From a virus (lineage: Duplodnaviria > Heunggongvirae > Uroviricota > Caudoviricetes): DNA of 19,804 bases. The notes under the pieces were generated by a model. The model saw only the letters and a list, made by a program, of their open reading frames with translations, had not been told where the DNA came from and made no database searches. Positions 1 through 19,804 of this stretch are shown piece after piece; within the stretch, counting starts at the first letter, position 1, and each line of letters opens with the position of its first letter. The stretch lies in the IMG/VR virus record IMGVR_UViG_2648501400_000003; one strand, given 5' to 3'. A program made the position numbers and the translations under genes.

Positions 1-93
1 ATCTGCTCTCCAATGACTAGTCTAAAAACTAGTATTAAGACTATCACTTATTTAAGTGATATTGGTTGTCTGGAGATTCAGGGGGCCAGTCTA
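1..93 (-). mobile_element. IS2 left end, partial (IRL plus leader up to the first two bases of the orfA ATG); body of the element lies outside the window to the left
   Basis: Bases 1-97 are the exact reverse complement of 19704-19800 (checked base by base). Read on the - strand, the sequence TAGACTGGCCCCCTGAATCTCCAGACAACCAATATCACTTAAATAAGTGATAG... matches the IS2 (IS3 family) IRL and leader as I remember it. From memory, not database-checked. Confidence 0.7.
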
Positions 94-383
94 GTCAACG
101 TGATGTAGCAGAACTCGATGCCAGATACACAAAGGAGCTTGCTGATGCTAACGCGACTATCGAAAGTCTACGTGCTGATGTTTCTGCTGGGCGTAAGCGC
201 CTGCAAGTCACCGCCACCTGTGCAAAGTCAACGACCGGAGCCAGCAGCATGGGCGATGGAGAAAGCCCAAGACTTACAGCAGATGCTGAACTCAATTATT
301 ACCGTCTCCGAAGTGGAATCGACAGGATAACCGCGCAGGTTAACTACCTGCAGGAGTACATCAGGACGCAATGCCTGAAATAA
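94..383 (+). pseudogene. Rz: Rz i-spanin, 5'-truncated by the IS2 insertion (about codons 58-153 retained; N-terminal transmembrane anchor and start codon missing)
   Basis: Translation from 96 (QRDVAELDARYTKELADANATIESLRADVSAGRKRL...YIRTQCLK) aligns with the C-terminal two thirds of lambda Rz (RQRDVAALDAKYTKELADA...). The reading frame hits a TGA at 57-59 inside the IS-derived sequence, so the TTG 'start' at 66 in the ORF track is not a real start. Confidence 0.8.
145..330 (+). CDS. Rz1: Rz1 o-spanin lipoprotein, embedded in the +1 frame of Rz
   Basis: ATG at 145 gives MLTRLSKVYVLMFLLGVSAC KSPPPVQSQRPEPAAW...: a roughly 19-aa signal peptide, a lipobox-like VSAC with Cys20, and a Pro-rich mature part. 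Length (61 aa) and nesting inside Rz match lambda Rz1. Confidence 0.75.
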   Translation: MLTRLSKVYVLMFLLGVSACKSPPPVQSQRPEPAAWAMEKAQDLQQMLNSIITVSEVESTG

Positions 384-416
384 TTTTTTTTGCAAATCAC
401 AAAGTCAATTTAATGA

Positions 417-439
417 GCCTCGCGATGCGGGGCTTTTTT
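417..439 (+). terminator. Candidate intrinsic terminator after the lysis cassette
   Basis: GCCTCGC-GAT-GCGGGGC hairpin (7-bp stem including one G-U pair) followed by TTTTTT, 34 nt after the Rz stop. Confidence 0.45.
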
Positions 440-586
440 ATGTCCGCAGTAAACGCGCTTCACACGCGCGACTTATGAACACAGAACCTTTCAGGATGAC
501 CCTTGAGGATGCCGGTTTGGTGATCGGTGCCTTTCTGTGGGCCGGAATCCTGTGTGACAAGGTTCATCACTAAAAGGTGAGCACTG

Positions 587-1141
587 ATGAATTATCCAAC
601 TATCGTTAACGGCATCGATTTCCGAGATCTGATTTTTGTGGCAAACAACGATCCGGTTACAGATTCTTTTATGGTGGCAAAAGCATTTGGAAAGCTGCCG
701 AAGAACGTAGTTCGTGACATTGAACGAACCATAGAAGCTTGCCCTCCTGAGTTTGATACAAAGCTCAACTTTGAGCTTTGCTATAAAAACAATGAGTTAC
801 AGAATGGTAAGCCGCAAAAATTCTACCGTCTCCGCAAGGATGGGTTGATGCTTTTGGTTATGTCCTACACCAAAAAAGAAGCAATGCGTATCAAAATTGC
901 TTATATCAACGCATTTAACTGGATGTACGCCATGCTTCAGGTTGGTCATCGTCAATTTGAAGAAGAGAGAAATGCCGTAATGCTGGAGTACATGAAAGAG
1001 AAGGATGTCGCCAGCATGTCAGGCCGTCTGCTCAATCGCTGGGGGAGAACGAAAAAACCTCAATTGCTTGCAAAGCTGAAACGCCTGGAGAGACAGGGAC
1101 AGTTTTTATTACCGGGATTCGATAAGGGGATTCAAGCCTGA
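587..1141 (+). CDS. Rha-family phage regulatory protein (pfam Phage_pRha-like N-terminal domain)
   Basis: ATG at 587 preceded by AAGGTGA. N-terminus TDSFMVAKAFGKLPKNVVRDIER and YRLRKDGLMLLVMSYTKKEAMRIKIAYINAF match the conserved Rha-family motifs as I remember them. Sits between the lysis genes and cos. Confidence 0.65.
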   Translation: MNYPTIVNGIDFRDLIFVANNDPVTDSFMVAKAFGKLPKNVVRDIERTIEACPPEFDTKLNFELCYKNNELQNGKPQKFYRLRKDGLMLLVMSYTKKEAMRIKIAYINAFNWMYAMLQVGHRQFEEERNAVMLEYMKEKDVASMSGRLLNRWGRTKKPQLLAKLKRLERQGQFLLPGFDKGIQA

Positions 1142-16575: not shown

Positions 16576-16593
16576 TGAAAAACGTTTTATGTG

Positions 16594-16614
16594 AAACCGC
16601 CTCAGGGCGGTTTT
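16594..16614 (+). terminator. Hairpin between I and J (possible attenuator or RNA processing site)
   Basis: AAACCGCC-TCAG-GGCGGTTT perfect 8-bp stem followed by TTTT, 18 nt after the I stop and about 20 nt before the J start. Confidence 0.35.
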
Positions 16615-16635
16615 GTCGTTTCTGGAGCGAGAGGA

Positions 16636-19600
16636 ATGGGTAAAGGCAGCAGTAAGGGGCATACCCCGCGCGAAGCGAAGGACAACCTGAAATCATCCCA
16701 GCTGCTGAGCGTGATAGACGCCATCAGTGAAGGGCCGATTGAAGGTCCGGTGGATGGATTAAAAAGTGTGCTGCTGAACAGTACGCCAGTGCTGGACAGT
16801 GAGGGGAATACCAATATCTCCGGTGTCACGGTGGTGTTCCGGGCAGGTGAGCAGGAGCAGACACCGCCGGAGGGATTTGAATCCTCCGGTTCAGAAACCG
16901 TTATCGGTGCAGAATTAAAATATGACAATCCGCTCACCCGGACCATCACGTCGGCAAACATCGACCGTCTGCGCCTGACCTTCGGTGTGCAGGCACTGGT
17001 GGAAACCACTTCAAAGGGGGACCGGAATCCGTCGGAAGTTCGCCTGCTGGTTCAGATACAACGTAATGGTGGCTGGGTGACGGAAAAAGACATCACCATT
17101 AAGGGCAAAACCACCTCACAGTATCTGGCCTCGGTGGTGGTGGATAAGCTGCCGCCGCGACCGTTCAGTATCAGGATGCGCAGGATGACGCCGGACAGCA
17201 CCACAGACCAGCTGCAGAACAAAACAATCTGGTCCTCGTATACCGAAATCATCGATGTGAAACAGTGCTACCCGAACACGGCACTGGTCGGCGTGCAGGT
17301 GGACTCTGAGCAGTTCGGCAGCCAGCAGGTGAGCCGTAATTATCATCTTCGCGGGCGCATTCTGCAGGTGCCGTCGAACTATGACCCGCAGACGCGGCAA
17401 TACAGCGGTATCTGGGACGGAACGTTTAAGCCAGCGTACAGCGACAACATGGCCTGGTGTCTGTGGGACATGCTGACCCACCCGCGCTACGGCATGGGGA
17501 AACGTCTTGGTGCGGCGGATGTGGATAAATGGGCGCTGTATGTCATCGGCCAGTACTGCGACCAGTCGGTACCGGATGGCTCTGGCGGCACGGAGCCGCG
17601 CATCACCTGTAATGCGTACCTGACCACACAGCGCAAGGCGTGGGATGTGCTCAGTGATTTCTGCTCGGCGATGCGCTGTATGCCGGTATGGAACGGGCAG
17701 ACGCTGACGTTCGTGCAGGACCGGCCATCGGATAAGGTGTGGACCTATAACCGCAGTAATGTGGTGATGCCGGATGATGGCGCGCCGTTCCGCTACAGCT
17801 TCAGCGCCCTGAAAGACCGCCATAATGCCGTTGAGGTGAACTGGACTGACCCGGATAACGGCTGGGAGACGGCGACAGAGCTTGTTGAAGATACGCAGGC
17901 CATTCTCCGTTACGGTCGTAACGTCACGAAGATGGATGCCTTTGGCTGTACCAGCCGGGGGCAGGCGCACCGCGCCGGGCTGTGGCTGATTAAAACAGAA
18001 CTGCTGGAAACGCAGACCGTGGACTTCAGCGTGGGTGCCGAAGGGCTTCGCCATGTACCGGGCGATGTCATTGAAATCTGCGATGATGACTATGCCGGTA
18101 TCAGCACCGGTGGTCGTGTGCTGGCGGTGAACAGCCAGACCCGGACGCTGACGCTCGACCGTGAAATCACGCTGCCATCCTCCGGTACCACGCTGATAAG
18201 CCTGGTTGACGGAAGTGGCAATCCGGTCAGCGTGGAGGTCCAGTCCGTCACCGACGGCGTGCAGGTGAAAGTGAACCGTATCCCTGACGGCGTTGCCGGA
18301 TACAGCGTATGGGGGCTGAAGCTGCCGACGCTGCGCCAGCGCCTGTTCCGCTGCGTGAGTATCCGTGAGAACGACGACGGCACGTATGCCATCACTGCCG
18401 TGCAGCATGTGCCTGAAAAAGAGGCTATCGTGGATAACGGGGCGCACTTTGATGGCGACCAGAGCGGCACGGTGAATGGTGTCACGCCGCCAGCGGTGCA
18501 GCACCTGACTGCCGAAGTCACCACAGACAGCGGGGAGTATCAGGTGCTGGCGCGCTGGGACACGCCGAAGGTGGTGAAGGGCGTGAGCTTTATGCTTCGC
18601 CTGACCGTGGCAGCGGATGACGGCAGTGAGCGGCTGGTCAGCACGGCCCGGACGACGGAAACCACATACCGCTTCACGCAACTGGCGCCAGGGAACTACA
18701 GGCTGACAGTCCGGGCGGTAAATGCGTGGGGACAGCAGGGCGACCCGGCGTCGGTATCGTTCAGGATTGCCGCACCGGCAGCGCCGTCACAGATTGAGCT
18801 GACGCCGGGCTATTTTCAGATAACCGCCACGCCGCATCTTGCGGTTTATGACCCGACGGTACAGTTTGAGTTCTGGTTCTCGGAAAAGCGGATTGCCGAT
18901 ATCCGGCAGGTTGAAACCAGCGCGCGTTATCTTGGTATGGCGCTGTACTGGATAGCCGCCAGTATCAATATCAAACCGGGCCATGATTATTACTTTTATA
19001 TCCGCAGTGTGAACACCGTTGGCAAATCGGCATTCGTGGAGGCTGTCGGTCAGGCGAGCGATGATGCGGAAGGTTACCTGGATTTTTTCAAAGGAGAAAT
19101 CGGGAAAACACATCTGGCCCAGGAGCTGTGGACGCAGATTGATAACGGTCAGCTTGCGCCGGACCTGGCTGAAATCAGGACGTCCATTACGAATGTCAGC
19201 AATGAAATCACGCAGACCGTCAATAAAAAACTGGAAGACCAGAGTGCGGCAATCCAGCAGATACAGAAAGTTCAGGTTGATACAAATAATAACCTGAACA
19301 GCATGTGGGCTGTGAAGCTGCAGCAGATGCAGGACGGACGCCTTTATATCGCGGGTATTGGTGCCGGTATTGAGAACACCCCTGACGGCATGCAGAGTCA
19401 GGTGCTGCTGGCGGCGGACAGGATTGCGATGGTTAATCCTGCGAATGGCAACACAAAACCGATGTTTGTTGGTCAGGGCGATCAGATATTCATGAATGAC
19501 GTGTTCCTGAAACGCCTGACGGCCCCCACCATTACCAGCGGTGGCAATCCACCGGCATTTTCCCTGACACCGGACGGAAAGCTGACTGCTAAAAATGCGG

Positions 19601-19710
19601 ATATCAGTGGCAGTGTGAATGCGAACGCCGGGACGCTCAACAACGTCACGGTAAATGAAAACTGTACGATTAAGGGCATGCTGGAGGCGACTCAGGTCAG
19701 AGGTGACTAG
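16636..19710 (+). CDS. J: Tail tip/host specificity protein J, 3'-truncated by IS2 insertion (1024 of about 1132 codons; C-terminal receptor-binding region lost)
   Basis: Starts [20 protein letters not shown]... as in lambda J, with GAGAGGA SD. Spacing from I matches lambda. The ORF ends at a TAG (19708-19710) that is the first three bases of the IS2 end. By collinearity with lambda the native stop would be about 324 nt further on. Confidence 0.9.
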
Positions 19711-19804
19711 ACTGGCCCCCTGAATCTCCAGACAACCAATATCACTTAAATAAGTGATAGTCTTAATACTAGTTTTTAGACTAGTCATTGGAGAGCAGAT
19801 GATT
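19708..19804 (+). mobile_element. IS2 left end, partial (IRL plus leader and the orfA start codon ATG at 19799-19801); body of the element lies outside the window to the right
   Basis: TAGACTGGCCCCCTGAATCTCCAGACAACCAATATCACTTAAATAAGTGATAGTCTTAATACTAGTTTTTAGACTAGTCATTGGAGAGCAGATGATT matches the IS2 terminus and leader as I remember it (orfA/InsC begins MID...). Perfect inverted copy of 1-93. Confidence 0.7.

Follow-up and report, generated by a model that had tools for sequence, protein, structure and literature searches.

The stretch of DNA analysed here (the window) is 19,804 nt long, belongs to the virus record IMGVR_UViG_2648501400_000003, and carries a segment of a lambdoid prophage that meets, at each of its two edges, the left end of the insertion sequence (IS) IS2. 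The segment holds the late end of the prophage (a truncated spanin gene, Rz', with Rz1 and rha), a probable cos, and the full head-tail gene row, up to a truncated tail gene, J'. Its two edges form an inverted repeat of 97 nt (positions 1-97 and 19704-19800) that is 100% complementary, with 19,606 nt between the arms; a repeat search of the whole window detected no further long repeat. A perfect repeat of 97 nt is far beyond chance.

IS2 is an insertion sequence of the IS3 family, with a full length of 1331 bp. When aligned to the annotated copy IS2A of Escherichia coli K-12 MG1655, window positions 93 to 1 (reverse strand) correspond to IS2 bases 1-93 (92/93 identical), and positions 19708-19804 (forward strand) to IS2 bases 1-97 (96/97 identical). 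Both alignments begin exactly at IS2 base 1, and the single change with respect to K-12 IS2A, A to G at IS2 base 88, is present in both arms. Each stub thus consists of the left inverted repeat (IRL) and the leader of IS2 and is cut by the contig end: the left one ends within the start codon ATG of orfA, and the right one includes this codon (19799-19801) and slightly passes it. The two left ends are oppositely oriented with IRL towards the phage DNA, and the remaining 4 nt of each arm (GTCA at 94-97, TGAC at 19704-19707) fall outside IS2.

The window is the entire contig JHSW01000062.1, also 19,804 nt, of the draft Escherichia assembly GCA_001266175.1, as found by an exact look-up of the truncated J protein (16636-19710), which returned a single record; a second exact look-up, from the left end, led to JHSW01000062.1 again (range 1-10330). 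Because the window is a complete draft contig, the position within IS2 at which it breaks off determines the length of the repeat. The stub lengths of 93 and 97 nt are a property of the assembly and have no biological meaning; with two complete IS2 copies, the actual repeat would extend to as much as 1331 bp. Contigs that pass from unique DNA into a multicopy repeat typically break off at a short, roughly fixed distance inside it. Here, the assembler would have stopped about 95 nt into each IS2 as this element is multicopy in Escherichia, so leaving a terminal inverted repeat of 97 nt. Partial Rz-IS2 read-through proteins from other draft contigs (P0064 and P0065) end about 75 nt into IS2. The window ends, 93 and 97 nt inside a multicopy IS, do not differ in kind from the collapsed-repeat contig ends of short-read assemblies, and what is particular to them is that the same IS end occurs at both edges in opposite orientation. 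Where the two edges of a window form a terminal inverted repeat of IS ends, this signals a repeat-limited draft contig, and such edge repeats should be compared with contig boundaries before they are read as a bracketed element.

A sequence-only reading of this DNA, made before these analyses, had correctly described the perfect 97-bp inverted repeat and the opposite orientation of the IS2 left ends with IRL facing the phage DNA. Its assignment to IS2 and its “93-bp core” are exact, as shown by the 92/93 match to K-12 IS2A with the rest of the arm outside IS2. Its “two large inverted IS copies” are seen as inverted left ends, large copies being an extrapolation from stubs of 93 and 97 nt. The “bracketing” by IS2 likewise stands as far as the IS2 ends are concerned, which are real, and is in part an ordinary contig break at a repeat, a point missed when the whole-contig status was overlooked.

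Both IS2 ends interrupt a gene. On the left, what remains of Rz (Rz', 96-383, forward strand; PF03245, E=2e-33, profile positions 30-125 of 126) are the C-terminal 95 codons of this i-spanin without its N-terminal membrane anchor, while Rz of intact relatives has 145-155 aa. On the right, J' (16636-19710, forward strand), the tail tip/host specificity gene, ends after 1024 codons at a stop codon, TAG, that is made up of the first three bases of IS2. Its Pfam domains reach up to PF09327 (Phage_Tail_Tip) and it is cut ahead of the C-terminal Ig_GpJ_C: in the Pfam search this receptor-binding domain (PF12421) was absent from J' of the window, and it is present in the intact relatives (1137-1165 aa). 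IS2 ends at clean points in both genes, and the pentamers that adjoin IRL, GTCAA at 94-98 and GTGAC at 19703-19707 (both given on the forward strand), are candidate 5-bp targets. The uninterrupted Rz of relatives reads ...AAGC GTCAA CGTGATG... and the intact J reads ...GTCAGAG GTGAC TTCGTT...; if these are simple insertions, each pentamer would be one copy of a target duplication, of which only the IRL-side copy is visible. Duplications of 5 bp are present at six other IS2 copies that we inspected.

The phage DNA between the stubs (94-19707) is of a common type. Its closest relative among phages is cdtI (NC_009514), with 90% of this region covered at 96.8% identity, followed by Tritos, phi458 and mEp460; for the group as a whole the coverage is 84-90% at about 95-97% identity. 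The viable phage cdtI is collinear with the window gene for gene, from cos and the small terminase subunit to J (gp01-gp18), and the gene lengths in the window equal those of the relatives, so that the gene row is that of a lambdoid virion module of the mEp460/cdtI type. In comparison with this group, J of the window stops at codon 1024 of 1165, and the contig lacks lom, the tail fibre genes and the entire early region. At least 80% of the block is present in 1,771 of 5,426 complete E. coli genomes; none of these complete genomes matches the whole block above about 97%. Over parts of the block the agreement is far closer. The prophage at locus L014 (GCA_015138655.1) is 99.986% identical over window positions 94-14294 and free of IS2, with an intact Rz (145 aa), endolysin and holin upstream of the block, and locus L024 is 100% identical over 18500-19707, from where it runs on into a full J of 1165 aa and then lom. 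Neither of the two phage-IS2 junctions occurs in the 5,426 complete E. coli genomes, four of which have IS2 near Rz at other positions, and exact look-up among some 15 billion proteins placed the J'-IS2 protein on one contig only. Given near-identical copies without IS2 and junctions that are unique, both insertions look recent and strain-specific, in an otherwise common prophage.

We thus favour, with high confidence, an interpretation of the window as a segment of an mEp460/cdtI-type lambdoid prophage that has been disrupted by IS2, is defective, and is represented by a repeat-limited draft contig. Two IS2 elements, or at least two left ends, would lie oppositely oriented within the prophage: Rz would be hit at about codon 50-57, the number varying with the allele, and J after codon 1024. 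Each copy presumably arrived by the normal copy-out/paste-in insertion of IS2, in which the element moves via a circle with the right inverted repeat (IRR) as the sole donor end and IRL as the recipient (PMC3299598). Two independent insertions in opposite orientation account fully for the arrangement. The prophage would now be defective, with no membrane anchor on its i-spanin, no receptor-binding domain on J, and late transcription from upstream interrupted by IS2. Replicative intramolecular transposition, which yields an inversion together with a second, inverted IS, was considered as a source of the arrangement and rejected: IS2 uses circle-based copy-out/paste-in (PMC3299598), and the replicative event would put the duplicated target beside one IRR and one IRL, not beside two IRLs. 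The window is known in kind, an ordinary IS-disrupted prophage segment and not a new mobile or domesticated element. As such it matters little: prophages are routinely crippled by IS insertions, and contigs routinely end in IS copies.

Whether the prophage is otherwise complete depends on what lies outside the contig. A simple insertion in J would predict the IS2 right end (...GGGGCAAATCCA) followed by GTGAC and TTCGTTAAAGCTGTATCC..., that is, the 3' part of J and then lom; a simple insertion in Rz would predict ...CAGAAGC followed by GTCAA and TGGATTTGCCCC..., with the 5' part of Rz located after endolysin and holin. From the sequences of the closest relatives we built the chimeric proteins to be expected at these reciprocal junctions, namely a protein in which the N-terminus of Rz continues into the IS2 right end (...KRQ-WICPYISRHLLSLNPLQARCRRYSRGER) and a GTG-started open reading frame (ORF) that leads from the IS2 right end into the 3' part of J. 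Homology searches and exact look-ups, the outcome of which is dependent on how genes were called and on the precise allele, found neither a read-through from Rz into the IS2 IRR at the position seen in the window nor, subject to the same dependence, a protein joining the IS2 IRR to the 3' part of J. This absence carries some weight because the protein collection holds gene calls from JHSW01000062.1, even an edge fragment of 35 aa. Simple insertions into an otherwise complete prophage are a serious possibility, to which we give somewhat less than even chances, and we lean, without great conviction, towards recombination between IS2 copies by which the outer parts were lost or relocated. Plain double insertion and a remnant trimmed by deletion are the alternatives that the sequence-only reading had itself named. 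If the outer parts of Rz and J are truly gone, the window would provide a further example of IS-driven prophage decay.

Several points weigh against our interpretation as a whole. The missing reciprocal-junction proteins argue, as a weak lean, against two clean insertions with everything else in place. What is visible of IS2 amounts to only 93 and 97 nt, so that the full length of the elements and their target duplications are extrapolated; that the contig ends because of the multiplicity of IS2 in this genome is likewise something we infer. Lastly, the two flanks share the bases TGAC, which occur in none of 15 other distinct IRL flanks.

Regarding this shared flank, TGAC precedes TAGACTGG at both junctions when read towards IRL, and it is these bases that extend the inverted repeat from 93 to 97 nt. 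The 15 other distinct IS2 IRL flanks used for comparison, taken from K-12, two further E. coli genomes, a Shigella, Klebsiella species and a contig of a Prevotella metagenome-assembled genome (MAG), showed neither TGAC nor any consensus. A metagenome scan for GKTGAC followed by IRL returned one site, and its flank is unrelated. The choice of target by IS2 has been attributed to DNA curvature and not to a consensus sequence (PMC3299598). The match of 4 nt is probably due to chance (1 in 256), possibly aided by a weak preference.

Three other explanations have to be weighed. The sequence-only reading had suggested a composite-transposon-like or invertible unit, in which two full IS2 elements, with IRL inward and IRR outward, would move or flip the 19.6-kb block. 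The inverted orientation of the IS2 ends is indeed real, and complete inverted IS copies are a substrate for inversion by homologous recombination. Compound transposons resemble the window in that two ends of one IS flank a DNA segment in inverted orientation; they differ from it as the window gives no evidence of mobility, of a duplication around the whole unit, or of complete IS copies. We know of no compound transposon that is based on IS2. A further difference is that the IRL of IS2 has no donor function (PMC3299598). An outer pair of IRR ends would not be mechanistically absurd, since circles can arise from engineered elements that have two right ends, but the junctions of such circles have spacers of 2-3 bp, and the junction promoter is non-functional at 2 bp or more (PMC3299598). 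The arrangement has also been seen just once: neither the exact look-up, which placed the J'-IS2 protein on this one contig, nor the complete E. coli genomes, which lack both junctions, nor the metagenome scan, where the sole match to the short junction pattern has an unrelated flank, revealed an IS2-block-IS2 unit at another site or in another genome. No outer ends or duplications are visible, there is no sign that the unit ever moved, and an ordinary prophage, placed in its normal context, matches the block at 99.99% identity, so that the proposal of a composite transposon found no support. We consider such a unit highly improbable, and equally so its strongest form, a 22-kb unit with donor-competent outer IRR ends that could be excised, moved or inverted and would thus constitute a transposable packaging module equipped with cos and a head-tail set.

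Even less probable, in our view, is a domesticated particle-forming cassette of the gene transfer agent or tailocin type, where the host would have kept the packaging, head and tail genes after IS2 had trimmed away lysis control, replication and immunity. Head and tail genes do have the lengths seen in the relatives and in the viable phage cdtI, and cos is probably present. However, J is without its receptor-binding domain and the i-spanin without its anchor, the block has no evident regulator or promoter, and the configuration occurs on one contig only and is not conserved across related strains. Over 14.2 kb a normal prophage copy departs from the block by only about 0.01%, which leaves no time for selection or domestication. 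This nearest copy, L014, belongs to an ordinary prophage that carries an intact Rz along with holin and endolysin, and it lends no support to the earlier suggestion of a domesticated cassette. Nor is the block self-sufficient for the production of infectious particles, because of the two truncations and because no promoter was found that reads from the IS2 stub. An assembly artefact, with IS2 stubs (or one of them) misjoined to phage DNA in a genome that has no IS2 there, might be suspected because the window is a short-read draft contig with a repeat at its ends and because the junctions are unique. Against this, both junctions coincide exactly with the first base of IRL, which is what a real insertion produces, and do not fall within a shared sequence; phage DNA and IS2 share no sequence able to cause a false join; and IS2 in Rz, in the same orientation, is documented in finished genomes. 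A misjoin is therefore very unlikely.

The genes of the block, all on the forward strand, form an uninterrupted lambdoid row of packaging, head and tail genes, as the sequence-only reading had proposed and as is borne out by Pfam and by the collinearity with cdtI. The same agreement, with Pfam and with the relatives, extends to its description of an Rz without N-terminal anchor and a J without C-terminal receptor-binding domain; its statement that “every gene needed to build a virion” is present was overstated, given the truncation of J and the lack of lom and of the side tail fibre genes. Rz1, the o-spanin lipoprotein (145-330; PF06085, E=4e-20), is intact, lies inside the Rz frame region and was called as a gene of 61 aa. 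It is followed by a Rha-family regulator with an ORF11CD3 domain (587-1141; PF09669, PF10549), the exact protein of which occurs on 68 contigs, E. albertii included; this protein and Rz1 are identical to the Escherichia albertii entries BAT42094.1 and BAT42093.1, respectively. A promoter scan of positions 1-1700 detected no promoter reading out of the IS2 stub into the block, and scans of the window for tRNAs and Rfam families returned nothing. The probable cohesive-end site cos, GGGCGGGAGCGT at 1463-1474, is placed there because the deposited genomes of phages cdtI and Tritos start at window position 1463; we take it to resemble cos of lambda.

Packaging and head genes begin with the small terminase subunit of the DUF1441 family (1659-2186; PF07278, E=2e-44), which has the position of cdtI gp01, and the large terminase subunit of the gpA type (2195-4294; PF05876, PF20454), the exact protein of which was found on at least 24 contigs. 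The next gene (4291-4503), in the gpW position, has a weak Pfam match, and is assigned as head-tail adaptor by the position and length of cdtI gp03 (“head-tail adaptor”). Then come the portal protein (4503-6011; PF05136, E=5e-82), a ClpP-like prohead protease fused to the major capsid protein (5956-7983; PF00574, PF25209; 675 aa, as in the relatives), and, within 8070-8661, a head decoration/cement protein (8070-8393; PF09956) and a head-tail protein of the Gifsy-2 family (8386-8661; PF13856). The tail genes Z, U, V (major tail), G and T occupy 8673-11188 (PF06763, PF06141, PF16461, PF06894, PF06223), with T in the -1 frame relative to G as read from the coordinates. The tail tip genes M, L, K and I (14231-16575; PF05939, PF05100, PF14464 with PF00877, PF06805) precede J'. 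Between these two groups lies the gpH-type tape measure protein of 1024 aa (11160-14234; PF06791, PF24622, PF09718), which is a single gene in the window and in the remaining relatives, while in the close relative AIHE01000015.1 (L012 17317-20391, L019 5158-8232) it is split into ORFs of 307 aa and 665 aa.

IS2 has also been found in the lambdoid Rz of other strains, at no fewer than five other positions. The clearest case is E. coli EPSSH018 (NZ_CP125889.1; L054 1774-3095), where a clean IS2 of 1331 bp is located in Rz and flanked by the 5-bp duplication ACGGT. As in the window, IRL faces the 3' part of Rz and the rha-terminase genes; the two differ in that the position of insertion is another one and that both halves of Rz and the duplication are visible in EPSSH018, while the window shows the IRL side only and has a second IS2 end in J. 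Homology searches detected Rz-IS2 read-through proteins at four other positions in Rz (P0064, P0065, P0127 and P0134). It appears that IS2 frequently lands in Rz.

Another observation concerns the 3' end of J, to which, in at least five configurations of prophage remnants, a different upstream gene is fused in frame at one and the same nucleotide (...C|AGAGGNGAYTTCGTTAAAGC). The upstream partners are gpC, gpA, Rz, a ParB-like gene next to trkG, and gpU (fusions at L005 6138, L007 6213, L048 330 and L049 4467; proteins P0005, P0006, P0010, P0014 and P0015). The fusion point is the boundary before Ig_GpJ_C; in the window (19698-19707, J codons R-G-D), IS2 has inserted 9 nt downstream of it. Further clusters of fusions occur at |ISGSVNAN (P0007, P0009, P0012) and around |TVTISDD (P0028-P0032). 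At the four junctions that could be read as DNA there is neither an IS nor clear microhomology, the gpU case being seen as protein only, and in 121 sampled copies of the AGAGGNGAYTTCGTTAAAGC sequence on viral contigs the upstream part was always normal J. In the gpC-J remnant (L005 5977-6140) about 24 nt separate the portal gene from the start of the called ORF, whose start residue presumably matches about position 245 of lambda gpC, which suggests a second, internal deletion. The fusion point looks like a deletion hotspot. An IS-excision enhancer (IEE) has been described that couples the excision of an IS to an adjacent deletion (bioRxiv 10.1101/2023.06.07.543989), and as a lead, the J fusions may have resulted from insertion of an IS at a hotspot and subsequent IEE-type excision with adjacent deletion.

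The exact 38-nt left end of IS2 was also encountered in representative assemblies outside Escherichia, namely those of a Prevotella MAG, Streptosporangium vulgare, Paenisporosarcina macmurdoensis, Lamprocystis purpurea and a Nanosynbacter MAG. The first four of these have it on tiny contigs of 558-1543 nt (L040, L041, L042, L045), which consist of hardly more than IS2, and L043 is a MAG contig of 23.9 kb that carries the same 38 nt. The IS2 ends in these assemblies are most likely contamination derived from E. coli.

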